Shown here one piece after another: positions 6,589 through 25,848 of a stretch of DNA of 64,000 nt. The position numbers and the translations under genes were made by a program. Source of the DNA: Acidimicrobiia bacterium (GTDB lineage Bacteria; Actinomycetota; Acidimicrobiia; IMCC26256; JBMOIJ01); contig JBMOIJ010000002.1 of the NCBI GenBank assembly GCA_049317385.1, positions 76,581 to 140,580 of the forward strand. The letters are read 5' to 3'. The notes under the pieces are model-generated. The model did no database searches. It had not been told where the DNA came from and saw only the letters and a list, made by a program, of their open reading frames with translations. Positions within the stretch are counted from its first letter, which is position 1, and the number at the start of each line of letters is the position of its first letter.

Positions 6589-7493
6589 CAGAAGTATCCC
6601 TCGCGCTTGCGGTCCTCCATGGACGACTCACTGAACGCGTCGTCGGCTCGGGTTGCCCCGCGCTCGCTGATGCGCGCCGTGGCGACTTCGTCGACGATGT
6701 CGGCCACCGTGGTCGCCGATGATCGCACGGCGCCTGTGCAGCTGGCGTCACCCACGGTGCGGTACCGCACGGTGACGACTTCGGCCGTCTCACCAGGCAG
6801 CATCCGATTCGGGCCGCCGTTCCACAACAACATGCCGTCGCGAGCGAACACCTCGCGTTCGTGCGCAAAGTAAATGGACGGAAGCGCAATCGATTCACGG
6901 GCGATGTAAGTCCACACGTCGAGTTCGGTCCAGTTGCTGATGGGGAACGCCCGCAGGTGCTCACCGGGCCGAATACGAGCGTTGAGCATTCCCCACGGTT
7001 CGGGGCGTTGCGCTTTGGGTTCCCACTGCCCGAAGTCATCGCGGAAGCTGAGAACCCGCTCCTTGGCGCGCGCCTTGTCTTCGTCGCGGCGCCCACCACC
7101 GAATGCCGCATCGAATCGGTGCTCGTTGATGGCATCGAGCAGGGTCACCGACTGCAACCGGTTGCGGCTGGCCCGCGGGCCAGTGGCGTCGGCCACCCGC
7201 CCCCGGTCGATGGACTCCTGCACGCTGGCCACGATCAGTGTCTCACCGAGGTACGCCATGACGGCGTCGCGATACTCGATGACTTCGGGGAAGTTGTGGC
7301 CCGTGTCGACGTGCATGACCGGGAACGGGAACCGGCCCGGACGGAACGCCTTGCGAGCCAGGTGCAGGAGTACCGCAGAGTCCTTGCCGCCTGAGAACAG
7401 CAGCACGGGCCGTTCGCACTCTGCGGCAACCTCGCGGAAGATCGTGATGGCCTCGGCCTCGAGCAGGTCGAGTTCGGTGAGCGGGGTGGTCAC
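6588..7493 (-). CDS. cysD: sulfate adenylyltransferase subunit 2
   Basis: PAPS-reductase-fold motifs are LLFSGGKDSAVLLHL and HVDTGHNFPE. The GTG at 7493 overlaps the cysH stop (GTGA). Confidence 0.9.
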   Translation of the reverse strand: MTTPLTELDLLEAEAITIFREVAAECERPVLLFSGGKDSAVLLHLARKAFRPGRFPFPVMHVDTGHNFPEVIEYRDAVMAYLGETLIVASVQESIDRGRVADATGPRASRNRLQSVTLLDAINEHRFDAAFGGGRRDEDKARAKERVLSFRDDFGQWEPKAQRPEPWGMLNARIRPGEHLRAFPISNWTELDVWTYIARESIALPSIYFAHEREVFARDGMLLWNGGPNRMLPGETAEVVTVRYRTVGDASCTGAVRSSATTVADIVDEVATARISERGATRADDAFSESSMEDRKREGYF

Positions 7494-8176
7494 ACGGGGC
7501 CCTTCACCACGTGCAACCCGCACTCGGTCTTGTCGAGACCCGCCCACCGGCCGGCCCGACGGTCTTCGCCCGGCGCCACCGGACGGGTGCAGGGCCAACA
7601 ACCGATGGATGCGTACCCACGATCCGTGAGCGGATGGCGCAGCAACTGGTGCGCGTCGATGTAGTTGTCAATGTCCTGGTCGGTCCATGCCGCCAGCGGG
7701 TTCACCTTCACCACGTCGCGCGCGACGTCGAACTCGATGACCGGCGCGTGCGCGCGCGTGGGGGCATCGGCGCGCCGTATGCCGGTGATCCAGGCGTCCT
7801 TCTCGGCCAACACCCGGTTGAGCGGCTCGACCTTGCGCACGCCGCAGCAGCCCTCGACGTCGTGTTGCCAGCGATTGTCGCGGACGACGCGGGGATCGGG
7901 GGTCACAACGCGCAGATTGAGCTGGTAGCGCTGGCGCAGCGCTTCGGCATACCACTCGGTCTCGGCGAACAGGTACTGCGTGTCGAGCAACACCACGTCG
8001 AGTGTGGGCGCCACCTGCGCCACCACGTCGATGAGCGCAGCGTCTTCGAAGCTGGCGGTGAAGACGACCCCATCGCCATAGGTGGCAACCGCCCACTCCA
8101 CGATTGCGGCGGCACCCCGCGGCTCGAGTTCGGCGGCGAGCGCCGGGATCTGGTCAGCAGTGGGACGATCGGTCAC
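7490..8176 (-). CDS. cysH: adenylyl-sulfate (APS)/PAPS reductase, thioredoxin-dependent, with Fe-S cysteine motifs
   Basis: Motifs are EGCCGVRKVEPL, SIGCWPCT and KTECGLH. The GTG start at 8176 is inferred from the usual N-terminal length. The CC...CxxC pattern is typical of APS-type enzymes. Confidence 0.85.
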   Translation of the reverse strand: MTDRPTADQIPALAAELEPRGAAAIVEWAVATYGDGVVFTASFEDAALIDVVAQVAPTLDVVLLDTQYLFAETEWYAEALRQRYQLNLRVVTPDPRVVRDNRWQHDVEGCCGVRKVEPLNRVLAEKDAWITGIRRADAPTRAHAPVIEFDVARDVVKVNPLAAWTDQDIDNYIDAHQLLRHPLTDRGYASIGCWPCTRPVAPGEDRRAGRWAGLDKTECGLHVVKGPV

Positions 8177-11797: not shown

Positions 11798-14467
11798 TTA
11801 GTCGCCGACCAGGCGACCGGCCACAACCTGGACGGTGCGGTTGGCCAAATCCCGATCAACGCCGGCACGCTCGGTGGCCAGCACCAATGCACTGCCGGCC
11901 TGCCGCCGCACGGCCAGTTCGGCGCGCACCGCCGCAGCGGCCTTCGGCGCCAACCCGGCCGAGGGCTCATCGACGACCATCGCAATCGCCGACGCCGGCG
12001 CCGCGAGAGCCACGGCGAGAAGCCGCTGCTCCCCACCCGAGCAGGAAGACGCCCGCACCTGACGGCGCGCGGCCAGCACGGGGAATCGCGCGAACACAGC
12101 AGCCTGATGCTCGCGATTACGCACGCCCAGCGCAATGTTCTCGGCGACGGTCAGGTTCGGGAACACCGCACGCGCCGCCGGCACGGTCACCAGACCCCGC
12201 CGCGCTCGCTCGTGAGGGGGCTGGTACGTCACGTCCTCGCCTGCGAGGGACACCGACCCCGCGGCCGTGGGGTCGAGTCCAGCCAGCACACGGATCAGTG
12301 AGGTCTTGCCGCCACCGTTCGGACCGCACAACACGACACCCTCGTACGGCGCGACGTGCAGCACGATGTCGCGCAGCGAGACCCGACCTCCCCGCTGCGT
12401 CGAGACGTTGCACACCGACAGCGCCGGGGCCGGCGCAACGCTCGGTGGCTCCATCGATGGAGTCGGAGTCGACTGCGTCGGCCGGTGGCGGCTTCCCAAC
12501 GCGTGCACGAACCCTTCCGGATCGCGGGAGTAACCAATAGCACCCAACCCAAACAGCACGTCGGGGAGATAGGGAGACGCCAACACCGAAAGGAACGCGG
12601 CCGGCATCCAGTCCAGGAACGACACGCGGGCCAACTCGCCCATCGCCTGGGGCCACACTGCGACGACTACGCCGGCAACGACCGCGGCGAACGGGCGGCG
12701 CACTCCAAAGGTCACCACCACTGCCAACCACACCAACCCCACCAGGGCCGGGAACGTCGAGCCCGAGAACGGGCTGGTGGTGACAGCGAGCAGCGCCCCG
12801 CCCAAGGCCGCGATCGATGCGGAAACCGCGAACAACGCAGCTCGCGTACGGATAGGCGAGATACCGCACGCACGCACAGCCGGCTCGGAAGACCGCAGCG
12901 CCTGCGCCGCCCGTCCGAGTCGCGACGTACGCAACCAACTCACCGAACCTGCGACAACAACACACAGTATGAACCCCGCGACCGCCATCTGACGCGGCTG
13001 GCCGAGATCGATGGGTCCAAGGGTGGGGGGCGTCACCACCCAGCCGCGCGTGCCGTTCCCGAACCACTCGCTCCGAAACACCAACTGCTCGCCGAGCAAC
13101 CCAAGCGCGAGTGTGGAGATTGCGAACGCCAAGCCGCTGATGCGAAGCGACACCAGCGCGACCCCTGCGCCCAGCAGTGCGGCGAGCCCGATCGCAATCG
13201 CCAATGCGACGCCGAACGCCAGTCGTCCGTTGTGCATGAGGACCGGCATCGTGCGGTCGAATTGATGACTTGTGAGCAGCCCAACGGCCAGACCACTCAC
13301 CGTCACGAACGCAGCTTGCGCCAGGCTCACGACGCCGCCGATACCGGTGATCACCACGAACGAGAGGAACACCAGCCCGAGCGCAACCCCCTTCGCGAGC
13401 AACGTTGCCCACAGGTTGTTCGCCACGATCAACGCAACGGCGCCGACCACTGCGAACGTGACCCACGGAGCGACGGAGCGCATCACCGAGGAGCGGGCCG
13501 ACGCGTCCGCCGGCGGCGCCTCGCGGACCGCAGCCCCGGCAGGTCGCACTGTCGAACTCCCCCGCCACAGCACGACGGCGAAGAGCAACGCGAACGGCAC
13601 CGCACTTCGCATCCCGGTGATCCCCTTCATCGCCGGCGGCAAGTACCCGTACGCAAGGTTCTGCACGATTCCGACGGCCAATCCCCCGGCGAACGCCAAC
13701 GGGAGCGACCGGAAGCGAGCGAACACCACGGCAGTGAAGGCCCCAACCATGAGGAGCGTGAACACTCCGGGGTCGAGTTGGTAGAGCGGCGTGATCAGCA
13801 CGCCGGTGACACCGGCCAACACGAATCCGATGACCCACGACACGGTGGAGATCCGCTCAACGTCGACCCCTCGCAAGGACGCGAGCTCCCGATCGTCAAC
13901 TGCGGCACGAGTGAGCAAGCCGAAGCGCGTGCGCCGGAGCAACCACCACAGCCCGATGGCCGCAGCGGCGGCAATGACGAGCACCAACAACTCGTCGGAG
14001 TTCACCGCCATGCGGGCCAATGGGTTCCAAACGACCGGCGGCACCGGACCGAGCCCTGGAACCGCAATCACAGAGGTGGTGTCGGGCACGGCCACTCCAC
14101 TGGCCGAGCACGCAGCGAGTACCACGCGGGTGAGCGCCGGCAGCGCGACGAGCAGACCGATGGTCGCCACGATGCGCGCAACCTCAGGCGCACGCGCCAA
14201 CGCGCGGAACATCACGCGATCGAGGAGGAAGCCCAGGGCGGGCGCGATCACGAGCACGCTCAGCACGAACGCGGCCGCAGTCGGCCAATCGGCCCCTTCA
14301 GGTGTGCGCAACAAGAAGTACATGAGGGCGCACACGTAGGCAACGGCTGCGTGGGCGAAGTCGAAGATGCCGGACGTGTCGTACGTGAGGACCAAACCGG
14401 TGGCCAGGAGCGCGTAGAGGCCGCCGGCCACCGCACCGGAAACCAGGAGCGCAATGAACACGCTCAT
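11798..14467 (-). CDS. branched-chain-amino-acid-type ABC transporter, fused permease-permease-ATPase (LivH-LivM-LivF-like) polypeptide
   Basis: ATG at 14467 (MSVFIALLVSGAVAGGLYALLATGLVLTY). About 20 hydrophobic segments are followed by one NBD with Walker A GPNGGGKT, signature CSGGEQ and Walker B MVVDEP. The reading frame is uninterrupted. Confidence 0.75.
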   Translation of the reverse strand: MSVFIALLVSGAVAGGLYALLATGLVLTYDTSGIFDFAHAAVAYVCALMYFLLRTPEGADWPTAAAFVLSVLVIAPALGFLLDRVMFRALARAPEVARIVATIGLLVALPALTRVVLAACSASGVAVPDTTSVIAVPGLGPVPPVVWNPLARMAVNSDELLVLVIAAAAAIGLWWLLRRTRFGLLTRAAVDDRELASLRGVDVERISTVSWVIGFVLAGVTGVLITPLYQLDPGVFTLLMVGAFTAVVFARFRSLPLAFAGGLAVGIVQNLAYGYLPPAMKGITGMRSAVPFALLFAVVLWRGSSTVRPAGAAVREAPPADASARSSVMRSVAPWVTFAVVGAVALIVANNLWATLLAKGVALGLVFLSFVVITGIGGVVSLAQAAFVTVSGLAVGLLTSHQFDRTMPVLMHNGRLAFGVALAIAIGLAALLGAGVALVSLRISGLAFAISTLALGLLGEQLVFRSEWFGNGTRGWVVTPPTLGPIDLGQPRQMAVAGFILCVVVAGSVSWLRTSRLGRAAQALRSSEPAVRACGISPIRTRAALFAVSASIAALGGALLAVTTSPFSGSTFPALVGLVWLAVVVTFGVRRPFAAVVAGVVVAVWPQAMGELARVSFLDWMPAAFLSVLASPYLPDVLFGLGAIGYSRDPEGFVHALGSRHRPTQSTPTPSMEPPSVAPAPALSVCNVSTQRGGRVSLRDIVLHVAPYEGVVLCGPNGGGKTSLIRVLAGLDPTAAGSVSLAGEDVTYQPPHERARRGLVTVPAARAVFPNLTVAENIALGVRNREHQAAVFARFPVLAARRQVRASSCSGGEQRLLAVALAAPASAIAMVVDEPSAGLAPKAAAAVRAELAVRRQAGSALVLATERAGVDRDLANRTVQVVAGRLVGD

Positions 14468-14486
14468 CTGGTTACCGCCAATTCGC

Positions 14487-15758
14487 TCACGACACCGAGA
14501 CCAACTTCGTGCACGTGAACGGAACCACCGGCTGGTACGCACCGTTGCTGATCTGCACCGCCGACTGACACGGGACCGGAACCGTGTGGTTCTTCGGGAA
14601 CTCAACGGTTCCCAATGCGTCGGGAACCGAGTACGAGAAGTTGTTGTTCATGGCAGCAACAAGTTTCTCGATGGTGAGGTCACGCCCCGCTTTCTGCAGG
14701 CCGGCCAGGAGGAGGTCGGCAGCCCAGTAACTCGCCGCGTTCGCGAGGTTGAGCGGCGTCTTGGTGCCGTTCTTCGCGTCGTAGGCCGCGAAGTCTTCCT
14801 TCATCTGCTTGATCGCCGCCGCCGAGGATTCGTAGGGCGCCCACTGCAGCGCGATGAGGAAGTTCTTCTGGAACGTAGGGACTTGGAGGAGTGCCGGGTC
14901 GTACCCGACCGCCGACTCGTAGAGCCCCTTGTAACCCAGCTCGTTCATCTTCTTGGTGAGGCCGTTGACATCCTTGAACGGCATGATCTGGAGCGTGACG
15001 TCGGGTTCCCTGTTCGCGTTCGCTGTGAGCACTTCCTGGGCGAACTGCGTGTAGTCGGTGGCCGGCACCGCAACCGGAATGCTGTTGAACGGCCCGAGCA
15101 CGGTGAACCCGGCCGCCTTCACGCTGGCCGCCACTGCCTTGGTCCCAATCTTCGACGAGTCATCGTCGACCCCCACGACGGCCACCGTCTTGGGGTTCTT
15201 GTTCGCATCGTTGGCGAAGTACTTCTGCAACACCACGCCCCATGCACCGTTTTCTTCGGTGGGGTTGGGGTTCGTCAAACAACCGGTGATACCGAAGCCG
15301 TAGTCGGAACCGCACCAGTCGCGGGAGATGCCCCAGCCCACGAACGGCGTCTTGGTCTTGTTGAGGAACGCGGCACCTCCGAAGCGGGAACTGATGACTG
15401 GCGCCACCACCGCAACCTGGTCCTGGTCGACGAGGCGCTGCACGATCTCGGCGTTCGTGTTGGCGTCGGTCTTGTCGCTCGTGACACCGACGTAGTCGAT
15501 GGTGCGACCGTTGACGCCGCCTTCGTTGTTGGCACGCAAGAAACGGGCTCCGGCGCCGTTGCCGGCCTGGAGGAATTGCGCGTCGTCGATGACGCCACCG
15601 ATCTTGACGGAATTGTCGGTGATGCCGCGCGTGGTGCGGGTGGCGGGTTCCGCAGCCGCGGTGGTGGTGGGCACAGCCTTCTTCGTGCTGGAACAGCCCG
15701 CGATCACCAGCGCAACGCTGGCGGCCCCGATGACGACACACTTCGACAGTCGACCCAC
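14487..15758 (-). CDS. ABC transporter substrate-binding lipoprotein (LivK/type I periplasmic-binding fold)
   Basis: The GTG at 15758 is preceded by AAGGGAG. The lipobox is VALVIAGCSS. It lies directly upstream of the permease gene. Confidence 0.8.
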   Translation of the reverse strand: MGRLSKCVVIGAASVALVIAGCSSTKKAVPTTTAAAEPATRTTRGITDNSVKIGGVIDDAQFLQAGNGAGARFLRANNEGGVNGRTIDYVGVTSDKTDANTNAEIVQRLVDQDQVAVVAPVISSRFGGAAFLNKTKTPFVGWGISRDWCGSDYGFGITGCLTNPNPTEENGAWGVVLQKYFANDANKNPKTVAVVGVDDDSSKIGTKAVAASVKAAGFTVLGPFNSIPVAVPATDYTQFAQEVLTANANREPDVTLQIMPFKDVNGLTKKMNELGYKGLYESAVGYDPALLQVPTFQKNFLIALQWAPYESSAAAIKQMKEDFAAYDAKNGTKTPLNLANAASYWAADLLLAGLQKAGRDLTIEKLVAAMNNNFSYSVPDALGTVEFPKNHTVPVPCQSAVQISNGAYQPVVPFTCTKLVSVS

Positions 15759-16740: not shown

Positions 16741-16765
16741 GTTCGGCCACCTACAGTCCGTGCCC

Positions 16766-18664
16766 ATGACTCGCTCGTTCCGCTTCCTCACGCTGTCGTT
16801 GCTCGTTGCGGTCACGTTGACGGCATGTAGTAGCAACAACGGCTCGAAGCAGAGCAACGCACCGAAGGGCACGCCCGTCAGCTTCGACGGCAAACAGGAA
16901 TCGTCCATCCCGCTGGTACGTGTCGCCAACGCCGGCTCCGACGGGGGTCGACTCACCAAAGACCCGGCATTGCAGGTCTTCGCGTGGCAGTACGGCCCGG
17001 TCCCCGGCGTTCAGACGCCCGCCGGCAACCCGGGCGTGCGCGCCAGCGGCAGCCTCGCGCTCTACAGCGTGTTGCGGTACTGGAACGAACTCAGCGACGC
17101 ACAGCGGGCTGCCATCCGCCCGCTGGCCGGGCTGCCCGACGACTACGCGCCAACCGCCGGCCAGTTCGGAAAGAGTCGGCCGGCGCGCCGCGCCGCACCC
17201 ACACCGGTCAAGGCGTTCGAAGCAGAGCTCGCACGCGTGCGGGGCGAGATCGAGCCTCGGCTCGGAACCCTGAGCTTCCCGATCTTCGTGACCAAGGAAT
17301 CGGTCAACTTGAGCACCGAGGCCGACGCGCTCGCCGATGCGCTCGTACGCGGTGGCGTGTTCGGCACTGGCTGTTACATCCGCATGTTCCCCGGCTCCGA
17401 TGCAAGCAAGAGCACGCTCTTTTCCGTCCTCGGTCACGAAGTCATGCACTGTTACCAATTCGAATGGGGCCCGATCCTCGAAGGCTGGATCACCGAAGGT
17501 CAAGCCGAATGGGTGGGAGCCGTGGTCGGGAAGGCGCTGACGGGAGGGTCCGACCCGAACGCAGCTGGATGGGTCGAGAGCTATTACGAGACCCCGGGGA
17601 CGGCACTCTTCAAGCGCACGTACGACGCCGTCGGCTGGTGGATGCACCTCAACCAGTCCGGCGTGAACGTGTGGTCACGTTTGAAGAGCGTTGTCGAAGC
17701 CGGGGGTGGCGACGCGTCGTTCGCGGTCGCCACCGCAGGCGCCGACGAGACGTTGTTGCGTGAGTGGGGCTCGCGCGGCACCGGGTTGCGCCAGCTCGGT
17801 GGGTCGTGGTTCCTCTCGGGCCCCGGCGCCCCCGACGCGACAGGCCCTGGTGTGGGCTTCAACACCGTGTCCAACACCACGGGAGTCACCCGAACGATCG
17901 TCCCTTACTCCGCAGCGTACGGCGGGGTCGACTTCACTGCCGACCTCGTCGAGTTCTCGTACACCGGCAACGTGCAAGGACTGCTGCGAAAGAACGGCCA
18001 ACGCACCTTGGTGGGCCTCGACAACAAGAAGTGGTGCACCAAAGGCGCGAACGATTGCGTGTGCCCGCCCAACACCAAGTCTGCGGGCGAGCGATTCGAC
18101 ACGCTGCCGGGCGGCAAGCACGAGATCGCATTCACGGGCGGACCCGAGTCGGTCACGGTCACCATCACCGGCAAGTCGCTGAAAGACGCGTGCGACGGCG
18201 TGTGCATGGTGGGGACATGGCGACTGAACGGCCCCCCGACCGGATCGGGGCTGAGCTTCAAGTCGGGCGGCACCGGCGCCATCTTGAAGGTTGGTGAAGA
18301 CGGAGTGACCACCTACGACTTCACACCATCGGAGCCCGTCGTGCTCGACACCGGCGGCGGCGAGTTCAGCATCAAGTACAGCGGCGTTGGCAAGGCGCTC
18401 GCGCTGCTCCCGACGGATCCCAACGGCGGTTCGGCGTCGTTCACCGGCATCGACACCACTGGCATCACTGCTGAGGACATCACGATCGACGGGAAGAGCT
18501 CGCTCGACGGGTTGCCCACGAGCCTCATCGCCGACGCGGTGACCAAGGAGTTCCGCAAGTCAATCTTCATCGAAGACGCGAGCTTCACTGCATCGTGCCC
18601 CGGCAATCAGCTCGTGATCTCGAACAGCGTGGTGACGCTCAACTACACGAAGGTCGGCAAGTAG
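16766..18664 (+). CDS. secreted lipoprotein with an HExxH zinc-metalloprotease-like motif
   Basis: The signal/lipobox is FLTLSLLVAVTLTACSS. An HEVMH motif is present, and the C-terminal region is Cys-containing. No closer family is recognised. Confidence 0.55.
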   Translation: MTRSFRFLTLSLLVAVTLTACSSNNGSKQSNAPKGTPVSFDGKQESSIPLVRVANAGSDGGRLTKDPALQVFAWQYGPVPGVQTPAGNPGVRASGSLALYSVLRYWNELSDAQRAAIRPLAGLPDDYAPTAGQFGKSRPARRAAPTPVKAFEAELARVRGEIEPRLGTLSFPIFVTKESVNLSTEADALADALVRGGVFGTGCYIRMFPGSDASKSTLFSVLGHEVMHCYQFEWGPILEGWITEGQAEWVGAVVGKALTGGSDPNAAGWVESYYETPGTALFKRTYDAVGWWMHLNQSGVNVWSRLKSVVEAGGGDASFAVATAGADETLLREWGSRGTGLRQLGGSWFLSGPGAPDATGPGVGFNTVSNTTGVTRTIVPYSAAYGGVDFTADLVEFSYTGNVQGLLRKNGQRTLVGLDNKKWCTKGANDCVCPPNTKSAGERFDTLPGGKHEIAFTGGPESVTVTITGKSLKDACDGVCMVGTWRLNGPPTGSGLSFKSGGTGAILKVGEDGVTTYDFTPSEPVVLDTGGGEFSIKYSGVGKALALLPTDPNGGSASFTGIDTTGITAEDITIDGKSSLDGLPTSLIADAVTKEFRKSIFIEDASFTASCPGNQLVISNSVVTLNYTKVGK

Positions 18665-18811: not shown

Positions 18812-18912
18812 GCGCAAGCGCCGCCCGAAGGCGGCGCTCACTAGGTTACCCCGCAGGGCATTGCCTACGAATTTGGAATCTTGTCGGAGCAAGACACCAA
18901 TTCGGGTTTAGT
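18812..18912 (-). ncRNA. tracrRNA (anti-repeat plus structured tail)
   Basis: Positions 18883-18912 are complementary to the repeat at 28 of 30 positions. Both mismatches become G:U wobbles only if crRNA and tracrRNA are minus-strand transcripts. The tail begins AAGAUUCC and ends in a perfect 8-bp GC hairpin with a UUCG loop (18818-18837). The exact ends are uncertain. Confidence 0.65.
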
Positions 18913-18919
18913 GCTCTCT

Positions 18920-18948
18920 GTTCTAACAGCAACACCCCGTTCAAGCAA
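18920..18948 (-). promoter_or_regulatory. putative tracrRNA promoter (TTGCTT - 17 nt - TAGAAC)
   Basis: On the minus strand the -35-like TTGCTT lies at 18948-18943 and the -10-like TAGAAC at 18925-18920. This places a start about 7 nt downstream, where anti-repeat complementarity begins. Confidence 0.35.
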
Positions 18949-19019
18949 GGCTGCACCGGGCGCATGAGCCACAACGAATTGGCGCCCCAAAATCCATGTC
19001 GTCGGAAGGATGCACTGCA

Positions 19020-21992
19020 ATGAAGCGCGTACTCGGACTCGACCTCGGCACCAACTCCATTGGCTGGGCCATTGTCGACGTTCCCGATTCCGATGACGAG
19101 GACGGCGATGTCGTAGCGATGGGGTCACGCATCTTCCCCGCGGGCGCAGAGATCGCAGGATCCAAGACGGAAACACGAGCGAAGGCGCGTCGCATGAAGC
19201 GTGCAATGCGCCGACAAATTGCGCGCCGCTCTCGCCGACGTCAAACCCTTGCCCGCGAACTAGCGCAGGTCGGCCTTCTGCCTGCGAACGATTCGGAATT
19301 CCAAGAACTGATGTCCCAGCAACCCGGCGAGCTACTCGATCGCGCACTGGCCGGCGGTGCGCTCACTGCGCATCAGGTTGGAAGAGTGCTTTATTGGTTT
19401 GCTTCGCGACGAGGGTTTCTCTCGCTGCGCGCTGGCGGGTCGCAGATGGTCGATGGAGACAGCGGGTTCACGCCGGCTCGTTTTCGCCTCTCTCAGTTCG
19501 ATGGCGAGACAGGTGAGCGTGTTCACCAAGGCCAAGAGGACCTCGTCATTGAGTTCGTCCGGTCTCAGATGCCCCATCACCCGGACCTCATCACCGAACA
19601 ACTGCTCTTTGGCACTCAGGGCCGTCAGCAATACCCGGTTCGCCCAATCAAGCGAATTGAGACCGACCCCAAGGATGGCTCAATCCAACGGTTCGGAATA
19701 CATGGTCTGCTGTTCTTCCAACGCAAGGTCTATTGGGACCAAGGAACAGTCGGGCACTGTTCGCTCGATCTAGATTCCCGACAGCGGCGAGCAGCTCGCG
19801 CTGAGCGAATGGCTCAACGCTTCAACGTTTGGCAGACCGTCGTGAACGTGCGTGTGGGCGAGGACCAACGCAGTCTCGCTCTTGCCGAGCGCGCACGGCT
19901 CTTCGATGCGCTCTGGTCGAAGAAGACCATGACCTTCGGCGCAATGCGGAAGCTGCTGAGCCTCAGCCCCGAGACCGCGATCAATTTCGAGCAGGACGAA
20001 ATCAAAGGCTTGAAGGGGAACCAAACAGATCCAGAGCTCAAGAAGGCCCTGAAGACCGAGTGGGAACTCCTGACGGAGGACGAACGAGACCAACTTGTAT
20101 TCCTCCTACTCGGCACGAGCACGGAAGAAGCGACACGGACGCAGCTCTCGGCACGTTTCCACCTAAGCGACGAGGGGTGCGATGCGGCCCTCAAAGTCAA
20201 ACTGCCCACCGGCCGCATGAACTATGGGCGGCGAACAATCGCTCGTCTACTTGAGACCCTGCCAGAAGCGGCAGATCTCCGAGACGCGATCGTTGCTGCC
20301 GGCTTCAAGCCGCCCGAAGAAGCTGTGGCAGCCAAGTCCACGGATCTCCACAAAGTCACCAATCCCTTGGTTCGTTCAACGCTCACCCAGCTCACCAAGG
20401 TGATTGCTGCGTTGCAGCGGAGCTATGAGCGCGCCGATGGGACTGCATTCGACGCTGTGCGCATCGAATTGTCACGCGATGTTTCTGCCTCCGCAAAGCA
20501 GCGCGAAGCGATGGTCAAACAGCAGAATGAGAATCGCCACTCGCGAGAGGCAGCGGTGAAGCTCATCAGCGAGTTTGCGCCGGGCTCCGAGAACAGTCGC
20601 GACGCGCAGCGAAAGGCTCGTCTCTGGCGCGATCAAGGCGAGCAGTGCCTCTACTGTGGCCAGCCCATCTCAGCAGTTGAGCTGTTTACCAATTCAGTTC
20701 AACTCGACCACATCCTGCCGCTTTCCAAGACCAACAACGACAGCCTCGCCAACGTGGCCGTCGTTCACGCAGTGGAGAACCTGGAAAAGAGCAATCAAAC
20801 CCCGTTCGAATGGGCCGGGCCCGACCGTCATGCGGAGCTCGTCGAGCTAGCGAAGTCGATGCGCCTCTCGCGCGCGAAGATGAACAACCTCAAGACACAG
20901 CATGTTGCACCCGATGCGATCCCATCCTCGCTCTTGGTCCAAACGGGTTACATCAATGCCTTGGCACGGACCGCCGTGCGCGATCAGACCGGCATTGAGC
21001 CCGAAATCTCGCGCGGGCGGCTGACCGCCCAGCTGCTCTACCGCATCGGCCTCAAGAAAGATTCAAGCGACCACCGCCGACACGCTCAGGACGCTGCGAT
21101 CATCGCGATTACGGATACGCGCCTCGCACTGAAGCTCGCCAAGCGATACGCAGCGGAGCGCGACTACGGGAATCAGCGGAGCGATGACTGGGGAGCCTGG
21201 GAACCATGGACCGGCTTCCGGGCGGAGGTGCTCGCCAAGTACGAAACGATCTTCGTTTCGCATCGGCCGAGCCGAAAGGTTCGAGGGCAACTCCACGAAG
21301 AAACGTTCTATGGAAAGGTCACGTCGCCAGGAAGCGATTCACCAACTCTCTATGCGCGGCGGCGCCAGCTCACGGGCGGGCTCACCGGCACCCAGATGGG
21401 GCAGGTAGCCGACCCTGTCGTTCGAAAGGCACTGATCGACAACCTGGCGGAGCGGGGCCTCGCTACTGATGGCGGATTCAGCCTTGATCCGTCGAATCCA
21501 CCCCGCCTCCCTGATGGCACTGGAATCACAAAGGTTCGCTGCCACATGAACATGCCAGCGAACCGGATCATCCGCCCCACCGATCAACCGAGGACGGGCG
21601 TCTCCCTCGCAAACAACCACGTTGCGTACGTGTTCCGAAACGAGAAGACAGGAAAACAGCGCGTGCACGTGGTGGCCCGCCTCGACGCGATCGCGACCCG
21701 CGCGCTTCCTGCACGGAGCGCGGCAGAGAGTGCCCGCGGCGAGGACGAGGAGTTCTTGTACAGCGTGACTGCAGGAGACCTGTTGCTTCTCAAGAACTCC
21801 AGCCCTGCCGAGCAGCTCGTGAGGGTGGCTCGTCTCGACGAGGGCGGAAAGCGCGTTTATGCCTTTCCGGCGAACAAGGCGATCCAGTCGAAAGAGGAGC
21901 GCCTCCTCCTGACTGGGGACCAGCTCGCTGCGCTGGGCGCAGTCAAGGTAACAGTCCCTCCCGATGGCGAACCTCGCCGAGCGAGCGACTAG
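19020..21992 (+). CDS. cas9: Cas9, compact type II-C-like (about 990 aa)
   Basis: RuvC-I is LGLDLGTNSIGWAIV. The Arg-rich bridge helix is RAKARRMKRAMRRQIARRSRRR. RuvC-II is VRIELSRD. HNH is QLDHILPLS...ENLEKSNQTPFEW. RuvC-III is HRRHAQDAAIIAITD. The ATG at 19020 has GGAAGGA 9 nt upstream. An alternative ATG lies at 18996. Confidence 0.95.
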   Translation: MKRVLGLDLGTNSIGWAIVDVPDSDDEDGDVVAMGSRIFPAGAEIAGSKTETRAKARRMKRAMRRQIARRSRRRQTLARELAQVGLLPANDSEFQELMSQQPGELLDRALAGGALTAHQVGRVLYWFASRRGFLSLRAGGSQMVDGDSGFTPARFRLSQFDGETGERVHQGQEDLVIEFVRSQMPHHPDLITEQLLFGTQGRQQYPVRPIKRIETDPKDGSIQRFGIHGLLFFQRKVYWDQGTVGHCSLDLDSRQRRAARAERMAQRFNVWQTVVNVRVGEDQRSLALAERARLFDALWSKKTMTFGAMRKLLSLSPETAINFEQDEIKGLKGNQTDPELKKALKTEWELLTEDERDQLVFLLLGTSTEEATRTQLSARFHLSDEGCDAALKVKLPTGRMNYGRRTIARLLETLPEAADLRDAIVAAGFKPPEEAVAAKSTDLHKVTNPLVRSTLTQLTKVIAALQRSYERADGTAFDAVRIELSRDVSASAKQREAMVKQQNENRHSREAAVKLISEFAPGSENSRDAQRKARLWRDQGEQCLYCGQPISAVELFTNSVQLDHILPLSKTNNDSLANVAVVHAVENLEKSNQTPFEWAGPDRHAELVELAKSMRLSRAKMNNLKTQHVAPDAIPSSLLVQTGYINALARTAVRDQTGIEPEISRGRLTAQLLYRIGLKKDSSDHRRHAQDAAIIAITDTRLALKLAKRYAAERDYGNQRSDDWGAWEPWTGFRAEVLAKYETIFVSHRPSRKVRGQLHEETFYGKVTSPGSDSPTLYARRRQLTGGLTGTQMGQVADPVVRKALIDNLAERGLATDGGFSLDPSNPPRLPDGTGITKVRCHMNMPANRIIRPTDQPRTGVSLANNHVAYVFRNEKTGKQRVHVVARLDAIATRALPARSAAESARGEDEEFLYSVTAGDLLLLKNSSPAEQLVRVARLDEGGKRVYAFPANKAIQSKEERLLLTGDQLAALGAVKVTVPPDGEPRRASD

Positions 21993-21996
21993 AGCG

Positions 21997-22905
21997 ATGG
22001 GCCGAGCAGTGATCCTGAGCGACCGGATTTCCCGGATCGACGTCAGGGATCATCAGCTCCGCGCCTACCCCAGTGACGGAACGGAAGCGAAGTCCGCACC
22101 TTGCGAAGACATCGACCTGCTTGTTCTCGACACCCATCTGCTGATCGGACTCGATTCACACGTTCTTCAGGAACTTGCTGCTGCGCGCTCGGCGATGCTG
22201 GTCACCAATCGTTCGCACATGCCCTGTGGCATCTTCCTGCCGTTCAGCGCGAACCTGGACCATGGGGCAGTCACGACTGCACAGTTCCAGATGAGCGTGC
22301 CGCGCAAGAAGCGGGCATGGCAGCAAATCGTGCGCCGAAAGATCCGCAACCAATCCGCATTGCTCGAACCGGGTAGCGCCGCTTACCGCAGGCTCCGGCT
22401 TCTTTCGGCAGAGGTCCGCTCGGGTGATTCGAGCAATGCCGAAGCACAGGCGGCCCGCACCTATTGGAAAGCGATGCTCCCAAGCGGCGTGCGCCGCAGT
22501 GCACGTTCTCGCCTCGGCGTCAACGCCGCCCTGGATTATGGATACGCAGTGCTTCGGGCGGCACTCGCACGATCCTGCGTATCGGTAGGGCTGCATGTCG
22601 GCCTTCCGCTCTTCCATTCGAACCTGCGAAATCCATTCGCACTCGTCGACGACCTGGTTGAGCCGTGGCGCCCGTTCGTCGACTCACGTGCTCGTTCGCT
22701 CGGCATCGGAGAAGACGACCTACTCGCTCCACACGATAAGGCTGAACTTGTCGGCGTGCTCCACGAGAGAGTGCAGTGCGGAGGAGTCGAGGGCCCTTTG
22801 ACTGAAGCCATGCTGCGCGCTTCGGCGGCGATGAAGCGCTATGCGTTCGGCGAGGCCGACGAGCTGGACTTGCCCGAAAGCCCGCGCCCGCGTGCTCGCG
22901 AGTGA
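21997..22905 (+). CDS. cas1: Cas1 integrase
   Basis: It starts 5 nt after the cas9 stop and is about 302 aa. The Cas1-like C-terminal region contains NAALDYGYAVLRAALARS and LPLFHSNLRNPFALVDDLVEPWRP. Confidence 0.9.
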   Translation: MGRAVILSDRISRIDVRDHQLRAYPSDGTEAKSAPCEDIDLLVLDTHLLIGLDSHVLQELAAARSAMLVTNRSHMPCGIFLPFSANLDHGAVTTAQFQMSVPRKKRAWQQIVRRKIRNQSALLEPGSAAYRRLRLLSAEVRSGDSSNAEAQAARTYWKAMLPSGVRRSARSRLGVNAALDYGYAVLRAALARSCVSVGLHVGLPLFHSNLRNPFALVDDLVEPWRPFVDSRARSLGIGEDDLLAPHDKAELVGVLHERVQCGGVEGPLTEAMLRASAAMKRYAFGEADELDLPESPRPRARE

Positions 22906-23221
22906 GTTCCGCGCCGTGTGGATGCTCGTGATGTTCGACTTGCCAGTCGGTTCCAAACGAGCGAAGACGGACTATCGACGGTTCCGCGACTTCTTACAGG
23001 ACGACGGCTTCGCAATGCTCCAGTACTCGGTGTACGGCCGGCATTGCGCAACGAGAGAAAGTGCCGACGCCCATGCGGCTCGTGTGCGCTTCGCTTTGCC
23101 GCCAGCAGGCGAAGTACGGATCTTGCGGGTAACCGAGGCGCAGTACGCGCGGATGGAAGTCTTCCGAAATTTCGAGCGACGTCACCCGGAACCCGCACCA
23201 GCGGTGCTCGAATTGTGGTGA
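22892..23221 (+). CDS. cas2: Cas2
   Basis: The motifs MLVMFDLPV, YRRFRDFLQDDGFAMLQYSVY and others are typical of Cas2. The start is ambiguous (GTG 22892, GTG 22916 or ATG 22922). It overlaps the cas1 stop. Confidence 0.85.
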   Translation: MLASEFRAVWMLVMFDLPVGSKRAKTDYRRFRDFLQDDGFAMLQYSVYGRHCATRESADAHAARVRFALPPAGEVRILRVTEAQYARMEVFRNFERRHPEPAPAVLELW

Positions 23222-23266
23222 GCGGAACCCCCGCAGCCCCGTGCACTGGGCTTCTCGGCGCTAACG

Positions 23267-24288
23267 GAGGTTACTAAACCCGAATTGGTGTCCTGCCCCG
23301 ACTGAGAAGTCACCTTCGGAATCGTGAGATGTGAGGTTACTAAACCCGAATTGGTGTCCTGCCCCGACTGTCCTCGTACTTCCTGCTGCCATCCGTAGGA
23401 GGTTACTAAACCCGAATTGGTGTCCTGCCCCGACCGTTTTGTTTGCCACACCGCCCACGGGTGGAGGTTACTAAACCCGAATTGGTGTCCTGCCCCGACT
23501 GGGGGATCGTGGATCGCAACGTCGCCGAAGAGGTTACTAAACCCGAATTGGTGTCCTGCCCCGACACGTTTGTTCATCTAGTGCACCAGCGCCCGGAGGT
23601 TACTAAACCCGAATTGGTGTCCTGCCCCGACGGACTACCCAGGAACTGTTGCGGCACCGGTGAGGTTACTAAACCCGAATTGGTGTCCTGCCCCGACCAT
23701 TCAGCTACCGGTTCGCGCGCCTCGTCGAGGTTACTAAACCCGAATTGGTGTCCTGCCCCGACCCCATGCTGGTTGTTGCCGAGAGTAAGGGCGAGGTTAC
23801 TAAAGCCGAATTGGTGTCCTGCCCCGACGCCGGTTTGGGTGAAGGTGGCGCGCGTGCGAGGTTACTAAACCCGAATTGGTGTCCTGCCCCGACTTCCCAG
23901 ATGCGGCCGTATTCGATGAGTTCGAGGTTACTAAACCCGAATTGGTGTCCTGCCCCGACAGCGAGCCCGAAAGTGGCATCGCCAAGCACGGAGGTTACTA
24001 AACCCGAATTGGTGTCCTGCCCCGACAACGGTACCCGTCGGCGGTGTCGACCTTTGAGGTTACTAAACCCGAATTGGTGTCCTGCCCCGACTCCTGTACC
24101 GCGAAGGTGATGCGCTGGCCGAGGTTACTAAACCCGAATTGGTGTCCTGCCCCGACTAAATCTCGACCGTGCCACCATTGCAGACGGAGGTTACTAAACC
24201 CGAATTGGTGTCCTGCCCCGACCGCAGCTGCGGCGGCAGCGACGACCCGGCGGAGGTTACTAAACCCGAATTGGTGTCCTGCCCCGAC
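23267..24288. CRISPR. CRISPR array: 16 repeats of 36 nt (GAGGTTACTAAACCCGAATTGGTGTCCTGCCCCGAC as written on +) and 15 unique spacers of 29-31 nt
   Basis: Each unit was counted by hand. Repeats start at 23267, 23333, 23399, 23464, 23530, 23596, 23662, 23727, 23793, 23858, 23924, 23991, 24056, 24121, 24187 and 24253. Only repeat 9 differs (C to G at 23805). Transcription is inferred to be on the minus strand from tracrRNA pairing. Confidence 0.97.
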
Positions 24289-24312
24289 GTAATTCCCGGG
24301 CTAGCGACTGCT

Positions 24313-25848
24313 CTACCCACCCAGCGGGTCGAACGCCTGCACGCCATTTGTTGCGACGTGCGCAGTCCAAGATGCGCCATCCCAAAATCGGTATTCAAAT
24401 CGTTGGAGTGGGTCTCCGTACCAACCTGCTTCTGGCAGCAACTCGTGCACCACGGGCGCCACATCGCTGCGAGAGTCCACGATCTCGGGCACCGCAAGGC
24501 GCGTGCTTGCGCTTTGATCGGTTGAGCATTCAGCGCATCGAAGATCTTTGCGACGCCTCGCCCCTTCGGTAAGAACAACCGCCTTGCCGCACACCGAACA
24601 GAGTTGGACAGTGCGCGGCCGCATGATGGCAGCTTCGCCTGAAACCTCATCGCCCGTGCGAGCAGCAAGGAACGCTTCCGCACCAACAATCGGTATCCCA
24701 TACTTGCGGGCCTTGGTCGCCTTGACACTTGCGGTCTTTGTATCCCCCGCTACGAGAACATCCGTCGTCTTTGTCACGGAAGGCACGGCGACCATTCGCC
24801 ACTCCCACGCATGCTGCTCAAGGACTTCCCGATCAACAAATTCTCCGTTGATGCAAGCTTCGCCCGTGAAACAAACCCGCATCCCCGCTCGCAGTCGAAC
24901 TGCGACATTCGCCCGTCGCGATTGCTCGGTCTTGCGCACAACGAACTCTGAATCCACATCGAGAAGCTGAGCGAACGCAAGTAGCTGTTCGAAGTCCGAC
25001 CCAGCGAATGAGCCCTGTTCCAAGGCGCGGCTCACCAGCGCGCCTATGAATTGCTGATGAGCCGCATGCTGTTGCGTTCGACTAAGGCCCAGCGCACTCG
25101 CAAGGTCGTCGAGTTGCTCTCGTTCGTCGGGCGTAATACGCCAATCCTCGACGACCTCGGAAACGAGATCCAAATATGGCTGCTCATCGACATCGGCGGC
25201 AGAGATCGATACCAGAACCGGCGCATGAGATAGTCCAGCGCCTACGACAGAACGATCGCGTTCGGCTCGCGGGCATATCGCAGCGGAGCCTGGACCGACC
25301 GCGTCAGCCTGGACGGGAATAACTCCGCCCTCATGGTTAGGTCCGATCAGTTGAAATAGCTGGGCGGTCGCGCGCGCGTCATGGAGCGCTGAATGCCAAC
25401 CCCCAAGACTGATGCCGTAAGCAGAGCATGCAACCTGAAGGTTCTCCCCTGCAATGCGCAACGTGTCGATTCCGCGGCCAAGATCGACAACGGGGGTTAC
25501 AACTCGCTCGAACTCGCAACGCAACATCCGCTCGTCGAACCCGAAGAGGTTATGTGCGACGAGGCAAGCGCCGCGAAGACGCGCCGCGACCTGATCGGCG
25601 ATATCCGAGAACATCGGCGCATTCACCACATCGCTTGCGGTGATCCCGTGGACCTTGGTCGGCCCGACATCACGCCCCGGATTCACAAGTGTCGTCCACT
25701 CGTCGACGACACGCCCCACAAGATCGACGGTGACGATCGCGATTTCGACGACACGATCCTTTGATCGCAGCCCAGTCGTCTCGAGATCGATCACCGCAAA
25801 GCGATCACTGTCCCCAGCAACGTGCTCCAGCGTTCTTGCCGTGTTCAA
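24313..25848 (-). CDS. DEDDh (DnaQ-like) 3'-5' exonuclease fused to a BRCT domain, a Cys4 zinc ribbon and a C-terminal DUF2510-like domain
   Basis: Exo motifs are FAVIDLETTG, LVAHNLFGFDERML and HSALHDARAT. The BRCT-like segment is VCFTGE...DVLVAGD...KARKYGIPIV. The zinc ribbon is CSVCGK...CAEC. The DUF2510-like segment is GWYGDPLQRFEYRFWDGASWT. The start codon is TTG at 25848, with a possible alternative GTG downstream. Confidence 0.8.
   Translation of the reverse strand: MNTARTLEHVAGDSDRFAVIDLETTGLRSKDRVVEIAIVTVDLVGRVVDEWTTLVNPGRDVGPTKVHGITASDVVNAPMFSDIADQVAARLRGACLVAHNLFGFDERMLRCEFERVVTPVVDLGRGIDTLRIAGENLQVACSAYGISLGGWHSALHDARATAQLFQLIGPNHEGGVIPVQADAVGPGSAAICPRAERDRSVVGAGLSHAPVLVSISAADVDEQPYLDLVSEVVEDWRITPDEREQLDDLASALGLSRTQQHAAHQQFIGALVSRALEQGSFAGSDFEQLLAFAQLLDVDSEFVVRKTEQSRRANVAVRLRAGMRVCFTGEACINGEFVDREVLEQHAWEWRMVAVPSVTKTTDVLVAGDTKTASVKATKARKYGIPIVGAEAFLAARTGDEVSGEAAIMRPRTVQLCSVCGKAVVLTEGARRRKDLRCAECSTDQSASTRLAVPEIVDSRSDVAPVVHELLPEAGWYGDPLQRFEYRFWDGASWTAHVATNGVQAFDPLGG

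Follow-up and report, generated by a model that had tools for sequence, protein, structure and literature searches.

Among the CRISPR-Cas9 systems with solved structures, the best sequence match to the locus described here is the type II-C system of Neisseria meningitidis (Nme1Cas9, PDB 6JDQ/8JA0), which has a three-gene operon without csn2 or cas4, 36-nt repeats and ~30-nt spacers. In Neisseria and Campylobacter, type II-C arrays run antisense to the cas genes, with promoters located inside the repeats (PMC5965381, PMC12080349), and a polarity for II-C arrays as well as three mechanisms that suppress extraneous CRISPR RNA (crRNA) have been described (PMC12080349). Here, we analysed a 64-kb genome stretch of an uncultured Acidimicrobiia bacterium (contig JBMOIJ010000002.1; hereafter the window, to which all coordinates refer) and found a locus with the same layout, which is very probably a genuine adaptive immune locus of type II-C CRISPR-Cas9 with an intact sequence. 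The analyses below establish its gene content, catalytic residues, Cas9 fold, anti-repeat, conserved trans-activating crRNA (tracrRNA) structure and strand polarity. The locus is apparently functional, and would presumably be expressed and cleave DNA. While its architecture and the size of its Cas9 are ordinary, the Cas9 is distant from the characterised enzymes.

Gene content and Cas9

The window carries a tracrRNA on the minus strand, followed by cas9, cas1 and cas2 on the plus strand and the repeat array (Table 1), with gaps of 5 nt between cas9 and cas1, 16 nt between cas1 and cas2, and 45 nt between cas2 and the array. Family and domain matches of all three proteins exceeded the curated cut-offs: Cas9 scored 417 bits against TIGR01865 (cutoff 100), Cas1 scored 200 bits against the type II Cas1 model TIGR03639 (cutoff 120) and 255 bits against PADLOC Cas1_II, and Cas2 matched Pfam CRISPR_Cas2, TIGR01573 and PADLOC Cas2_II (124 bits). 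A single large effector with split RuvC I/II/III, an inserted HNH, an arginine-rich bridge helix and intact catalytic residues places the locus in type II. A profile scan of the operon and its immediate neighbours revealed neither csn2 (II-A) nor cas4 (II-B) in or beside the operon, which together with the close packing of cas9, cas1 and cas2 with the array gives the II-C layout. In line with this, the best solved-structure matches of Cas9 by both sequence and fold are II-C enzymes (Nme1, Hpa, ThermoCas9/GeoCas9) and Cas1 matches the NMENI-type model TIGR03639, a grouping taken from best matches. These analyses agree with an earlier sequence-only reading of this stretch, which had proposed a complete II-C system with cas1, cas2 and a tracrRNA, without csn2 or cas4, and with a Cas9 of about 990 amino acids in which RuvC-I/II/III, HNH and the bridge helix are all readable.

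The cas9 gene forms one open frame (18996-21992), in which the ATG at 19020, preceded 7-13 nt upstream by GGAAGGA, matches the start used by the relatives and by GenBank and gives a protein of 990 amino acids with the N-terminus MKRVLGLDLGTNS, as in all relatives. For cas1, the ATG at 21997, read from the sequence 5 nt past the cas9 stop, is most likely the start; an in-frame ATG at 21964 would yield 313 amino acids, and the Cas1 proteins of the relatives have 295-306 amino acids and start 6-19 nt past cas9. The cas2 product read from the GenBank start is identical to MFZ4584017.1, and GTG codons at 22892 and 22916 are possible alternative starts.

Mapping of the Cas9 domains placed RuvC-I at D8, the bridge helix at ~53-83, the REC lobe at ~84-445, RuvC-II at E483, HNH at D563/H564/N587, RuvC-III at H688/D691 and a C-terminal WED/PAM-interacting region (PAM, protospacer-adjacent motif) at ~765-990, and Pfam recognised HNH_4, Cas9_a and RuvC_III. 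The domain order is that of NmeCas9, and in a HMMER alignment of the two proteins (E = 1e-45) the motifs of RuvC-I (LGLDLGTNSIGWA), RuvC-II (RIELSRD), HNH (DHILP…N…ENLEKSNQTP) and RuvC-III (RHAQDAAIIA) as well as the arginine-rich helix fall opposite each other. When 26 members of the clade were aligned, D8, E483, D563/H564, N587, H688 and D691 did not vary, and the RuvC and HNH substitutions that would have spoken against an active enzyme were thus absent. An AlphaFold2 model built from the same 26-member alignment (mean predicted local distance difference test 76.7, predicted template modelling score 0.40, the latter as expected for a flexible multi-lobed protein) contains a long helix that spans residues 53-83, and its C-terminal region is beta-rich. 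In Foldseek, the model aligned over its whole length with ThermoCas9, Nme1Cas9, SaCas9, St1Cas9, GeoCas9 and AceCas9 (E = 1e-37 to 1e-22, 15-22% identity), with ThermoCas9 and Nme1Cas9 as full-length fold matches at E = 1e-35 to 1e-37.

Despite the common fold, sequence similarity to the solved enzymes is low. Identity to Nme1Cas9 (1082 amino acids) is ~22% over the structural alignment, and the solved II-C enzymes ThermoCas9/GeoCas9, CjCas9, AceCas9 and HpaCas9, which are of a similar size class and match over the full-length fold (Foldseek E = 1e-18 to 1e-37), are 15-21% identical. The protein is therefore not a near-copy of a characterised orthologue. The C-terminal ~225 residues, after ~765, gave no sequence match to solved Cas9s, including NmeCas9, in the HMMER comparison; because this part comprises the WED and PAM-interacting domains, the PAM of Nme1Cas9 is not transferable and none can be deduced by homology. 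Of the emphasis that the sequence-only reading had put on a small Cas9, the length of 990 amino acids held and the noteworthiness did not: the clade spans 984-1006 amino acids and the other Cas9 relatives found mostly 940-1100. CjCas9 has 984 amino acids.

The same Cas9 is deposited in GenBank as MFZ4584015.1 ('MAG: type II CRISPR RNA-guided endonuclease Cas9 [Acidimicrobiia bacterium]'; MAG, metagenome-assembled genome) on a 173-kb contig, i.e., the locus is already public and machine-annotated as Cas9. The next-best database proteins are 53% identical. A discrete group is made up of ~36 clusters at 42-53% identity, nearly all with 984-1006 amino acids (clusters P0002-P0036: 984-1058, except two longer partial matches), beyond which identity is at most 34%. 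The members of this group were recovered from metagenomes and MAGs, one source being a mesopelagic Tara Oceans sample, and no functional characterisation is attached to any of them. A literature search on Cas9 from Acidimicrobiia found no relevant paper, and a genome-contig scan for clade members returned, among the matches listed, only relatives at up to 31% identity. To a specialist the find is unsurprising, as there are thousands of uncharacterised II-C orthologues of similar size and the window Cas9 is already in the GenBank annotation. Its value for biology is that of a well-defined II-C example in a high-GC actinobacterial lineage, with a comparatively validated tracrRNA, antisense polarity and possibly promoter-bearing repeats.

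tracrRNA and polarity of the array

Searching the window for the 30-nt repeat core at up to three mismatches returned 17 occurrences (versus 0 in 100 shuffles), of which 16 lie in the array and one is an inverted copy upstream of cas9 (18883-18912). This copy, the anti-repeat, matches 28 of the 30 core positions with two mismatches, and 0 such copies are expected by chance. It is part of a ~107-nt tracrRNA on the minus strand (~18918→18812; the exact 5' and 3' ends are inferred), which consists of the anti-repeat (18883-18918, GAGAGCACUAAACCCGAAUUGGUGUCUUGCUCCGAC), a stem-loop (18842-18867) and a terminal 12-bp GC hairpin (18814-18841). On this strand both changes in the anti-repeat are G:U wobbles, the RNA folds at -55.3 kcal/mol (z = -4.0, compared to z = -0.35 for the plus strand), and co-folding with the crRNA repeat produced a 30-bp duplex.

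Because Rfam has no family matching this RNA, the tracrRNA call rests on comparative analysis, for which nine loci encoding clade Cas9s were fetched (L081-L089). They resemble the window in their full-length Cas9s (42-53% identical), in the order cas9-cas1-cas2-array and in a homologous repeat family (…CCGAA.TGG…CCCGAC), and differ from it in that none exceeds 53% identity and that their genomic neighbourhoods are unrelated. An anti-repeat with a homologous tail, GACAAGAUUUUCAAUUCGCGGGCUCUGCUCCACGGGGCAACCCGG followed by the GC hairpin, was present in seven distinct loci (L081, taken together with its near-twin L082; L083-L087; L089), and the tail was also visible, broken by Ns, in L088; the Cas9s of the eight loci with the conserved scaffold are 43-53% identical to that of the window. 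RNAalifold on eight tracrRNA sequences recovered 31 pairs, ten of them with compensatory double changes.

In each locus the anti-repeat varies with the locus's own repeat, and the differences between repeat and anti-repeat reveal the strand that is read. Across the seven loci we counted 43 such differences in the duplex region, of which 35 are C>U or A>G and hence wobble-compatible only with a crRNA that runs antisense to the cas genes; two are compatible in the sense orientation. This imbalance indicates that both the tracrRNA and the crRNAs of the window are read from the minus strand, and antisense polarity of the array is strongly supported by these sequence comparisons. The tracrRNA candidate of the sequence-only reading thus stood, including its place at the left end of the locus, with the qualification that tracrRNA and crRNAs run antisense to the cas genes. 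The crRNA repeat accordingly reads GUCGGGGCAGGACACCAAUUCGGGUUUAGUAACCUC, and an sgRNA (single-guide RNA) design has to use GUCGGGGCAGGACACCAAUUCGGG... as its repeat part since the crRNAs are read in this direction. The predicted sgRNA, [22-24-nt guide]-GUCGGGGCAGGACACCAAUUCGGG-GAAA-CCCGAAUUGGUGUCUUGCUCCGACAAGAUUCCAAAUUCGUAGGCAAUGCCCUGCGGGGUAACCUAGUGAGCGCCGCCUUCGGGCGGCGCUU, offers a ready design for a 990-amino-acid Cas9 far from all characterised enzymes.

The position of the tracrRNA module varies within the clade. In L081 (7833-7950), L082 (7833-7950) and L083 (7752-7870) it is inverted and lies on the plus strand upstream of cas9, on the cas9 strand, with the array still antisense, whereas in the window, L084-L087 and L089 the tracrRNA is on the strand opposite cas9.

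All seven clade repeats, that of the window included, carry TANNNT 0-1 nt from the repeat 3' end (crRNA orientation), within the segment that is unpaired with the tracrRNA. The motif reads TAACCT in L081/L083/L085, TAGACT in L084 and TACACT in L087/L089, i.e., the three inner positions vary while the outer T, A and T stay constant. Actinobacterial -10 elements have TANNNT as their consensus. The motif is a possible candidate for a repeat-internal -10 box, comparable to those of the Neisseria and Campylobacter II-C arrays. On this hypothesis, a start ~6-7 nt downstream would give ~24-nt guides, as in N. meningitidis (PMC5965381). In the window the polarity known from the meningococcal array is well supported and promoters are only suggested, with a -10-like TANNNT in place of the extended TATAAT-type box; repeat and tracrRNA sequences also differ from those of N. 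meningitidis, and the host is a high-GC actinobacterium.

For the window system, we infer a mechanism in which the ~107-nt tracrRNA would be transcribed divergently from cas9 and the array on the minus strand towards cas2, probably in part from the -10-like element at each repeat 3' end, with starts ~6 nt into the spacer and guides of ~24 nt. The first ~30 nt of the crRNA repeat would pair with the tracrRNA anti-repeat, and Cas9, with its intact RuvC and HNH sites, would bind this duplex and cut PAM-flanked DNA complementary to the spacer. New spacers would be added by Cas1-Cas2 at the cas2-proximal repeat.

Table 1 Position, strand and supporting evidence of the parts of the CRISPR-Cas9 locus
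Feature	Position in the window	Strand	Evidence
tracrRNA	18812..18918	-	inverted repeat copy, fold, same scaffold in 7 related loci, co-fold
cas9	19020..21992	+	990 aa; TIGR01865, Pfam, NmeCas9 alignment, clade alignment, AlphaFold model
cas1	21997..22905	+	302 aa; TIGR03639, PADLOC Cas1_II, relatives' lengths
cas2	22922..23221	+	99 aa; Pfam CRISPR_Cas2, TIGR01573, PADLOC Cas2_II
CRISPR array	23267..24288	- (inferred transcription, towards cas2)	16 x 36-nt repeats, 15 spacers

Spacers, targets and alternative readings

Tandem Repeats Finder and a repeat finder resolved the array into copies of GAGGTTACTAAACCCGAATTGGTGTCCTGCCCCGAC with a period of 65-67 nt, in agreement with the repeat and spacer counts of the sequence-only reading (16 near-identical 36-nt repeats, 15 unique spacers of 29-31 nt). 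Fifteen of the 16 repeats are identical, the ninth (23793) differs by one C>G substitution, and the two terminal repeats show no degeneration. The spacers are all distinct (nine of 30 nt, five of 29 nt and one of 31 nt) and had no counterparts elsewhere in the window beyond chance-level matches with eight mismatches. Under the II-C model of array polarity (PMC12080349), spacer 1 (23303-23332, cas2-proximal) would be the newest and the repeat at 24253-24288 the 'extra' repeat. The latter is unmutated and lies 24 nt past the stop codon of a co-directional minus-strand gene; apart from a weak predicted 5-bp pairing of the flank with its 5' end, nothing stronger was seen, and none of the three mechanisms that suppress extraneous crRNA in II-C systems (PMC12080349) was evident at the window array. 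A comparison of L081 (12262-15077) with L082 (12259-13153), which have the same flanking genes and repeat, showed zero common cas2-proximal spacers (42 versus 13 compared), a difference that fits ongoing acquisition and turnover at the cas2-proximal end in this clade.

The spacer search from which the sequence-only reading had hoped to derive a PAM yielded no protospacer in phage, plasmid, IMG/VR or JGI sequences, and hence no PAM. In GenBank phages and PLSDB plasmids, the whole array gave only matches with E of at least 0.3, which involved the GC-rich spacer 15 and part of spacer 10, and exact 22-30-nt patterns for 13 of the 15 spacers (five degenerate two-spacer patterns and three single 22-mers) had 0 matches in IMG/VR. 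The larger arrays of the relatives (42 spacers in L081, 89 in L083) found nothing among GenBank phages. A JGI metagenome scan with spacers 9 and 13 returned two matches, L090 6365-6392 and L091 838-865, in an identical 58-nt stretch. They were rejected as a spacer 13 protospacer, as they agree with the spacer in 25 of its 29 nt, differ from it in the seed (positions 4 and 5), form a mosaic of the degenerate pattern and occur at a chance-level count.

Several observations weigh against reading the locus as an active immune system. No target or PAM directly supports activity, a sigma-70 consensus scan of the region found no promoter, TANNNT might instead be conserved because the Cas1-Cas2 integrase recognises the repeat end, and the GC hairpin of the window tracrRNA lacks the U-tract that follows it on the terminators of the relatives. 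The missing targets and the missing consensus promoter would also suit a silent or recently inactivated remnant, i.e., an acquired island that is intact in sequence and unexpressed or blocked, for instance by an anti-CRISPR, as would its base composition: GC content is 0.58-0.63 over ~7.5 kb (~18.4-25.9 kb), covering the tracrRNA, cas genes, array and adjoining exonuclease gene, compared to 0.65-0.70 on both sides, suggesting horizontal acquisition of what looks like a small defence island. However, all three cas frames are open with catalytic residues intact, the repeats are near-uniform with sound terminal copies, and the anti-repeat keeps 28 of 30 pairing positions with both changes as G:U wobbles; for spacers of uncultured lineages, moreover, missing targets are the norm. 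We therefore consider a silent remnant very unlikely. Transcription of crRNAs and tracrRNA from the plus strand instead, in the direction of the cas genes as in type II-A and with a tracrRNA that extends into the 5' region of cas9, is exceedingly improbable. In principle a duplex could form, as the plus strand of 18883-18918 can pair with a repeat transcribed from the plus strand. Yet the fold of this strand does not surpass that of shuffled sequence, no terminator precedes cas9, the anti-repeat changes would be A·C mismatches, the wobble count across the seven loci is 2/43 against 35/43, and the conserved stem-loops as well as the hairpin and U-tract of the relatives lie downstream only when the minus strand is read.

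Compared to the self-contained II-C locus that we favour, a larger system could include the gene to the right of the array (24313-25848, minus strand), which encodes a 511-amino-acid protein with DEDDh exonuclease, BRCT and DUF2510 domains and might act as an accessory, either by prespacer trimming without Cas4 or by transcription that reads through into the array. The gene is on the crRNA strand and stops 24 nt short of the outermost repeat, no Rho-independent or canonical terminator was found between the two (24253-24370), it shares the low-GC stretch with the CRISPR locus, and it matches a generic CRISPR-associated DEDDh model as well as PADLOC PDC-S48 (E = 5.7e-100, 333 bits; residues 15-395 cover profile positions 4-403 of 411). 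PDC-S48 is a phage-defence candidate family only, on which a literature search found no paper. In contrast, the DEDDh match is limited to the generic exonuclease domain, a sub-threshold match to NCBIfam PRK06063 is consistent with a DnaQ-like protein, and many Actinobacteria have DnaQ-like proteins that combine an exonuclease with BRCT. None of the 89 other Cas9 loci fetched has a homologue, including nine same-clade loci with 0.4-8 kb of flank beyond the cas genes. For this reason a role as a conserved CRISPR accessory was rejected and the gene is treated as a neighbour in the small defence island, outside the CRISPR system; the larger system is highly doubtful. A wider proposal, which we hold to be unlikely while less so than these alternatives, is that this Cas9 represents a discrete, uncharacterised II-C lineage of ~990 amino acids (at least 36 clusters at 42-53% identity, the rest at 34% or less), with its own conserved tracrRNA scaffold and a PAM-interacting domain without sequence similarity to solved Cas9s; it could recognise a new PAM and give a compact GC-tolerant editor, and in this genome may be functionally coupled to the PDC-S48 exonuclease through read-through into the extra repeat or prespacer trimming.

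Genomic surroundings and a possibly disrupted relative

On the left, the locus is adjoined by a gene for a peptidase-like protein (16760-18664). The borders of the low-GC stretch showed no tRNA gene and no flanking direct repeats. An AT skew of 0.36 at 12-14 kb coincides with a minus-strand gene for a branched-chain amino-acid permease fused to an ATP-binding cassette ATPase (11798-14605); a link to the CRISPR locus was rejected, as genes for membrane proteins ordinarily have such a skewed composition.

Within the clade, L084 (5556-8043) deviates from the common layout. No cas2 was called after its cas1, a single degenerate repeat-like sequence is present at 6830-6865, and an rve-family transposase gene follows at 7402-8043, so that L084 may be in decay or have been broken up by an insertion sequence.

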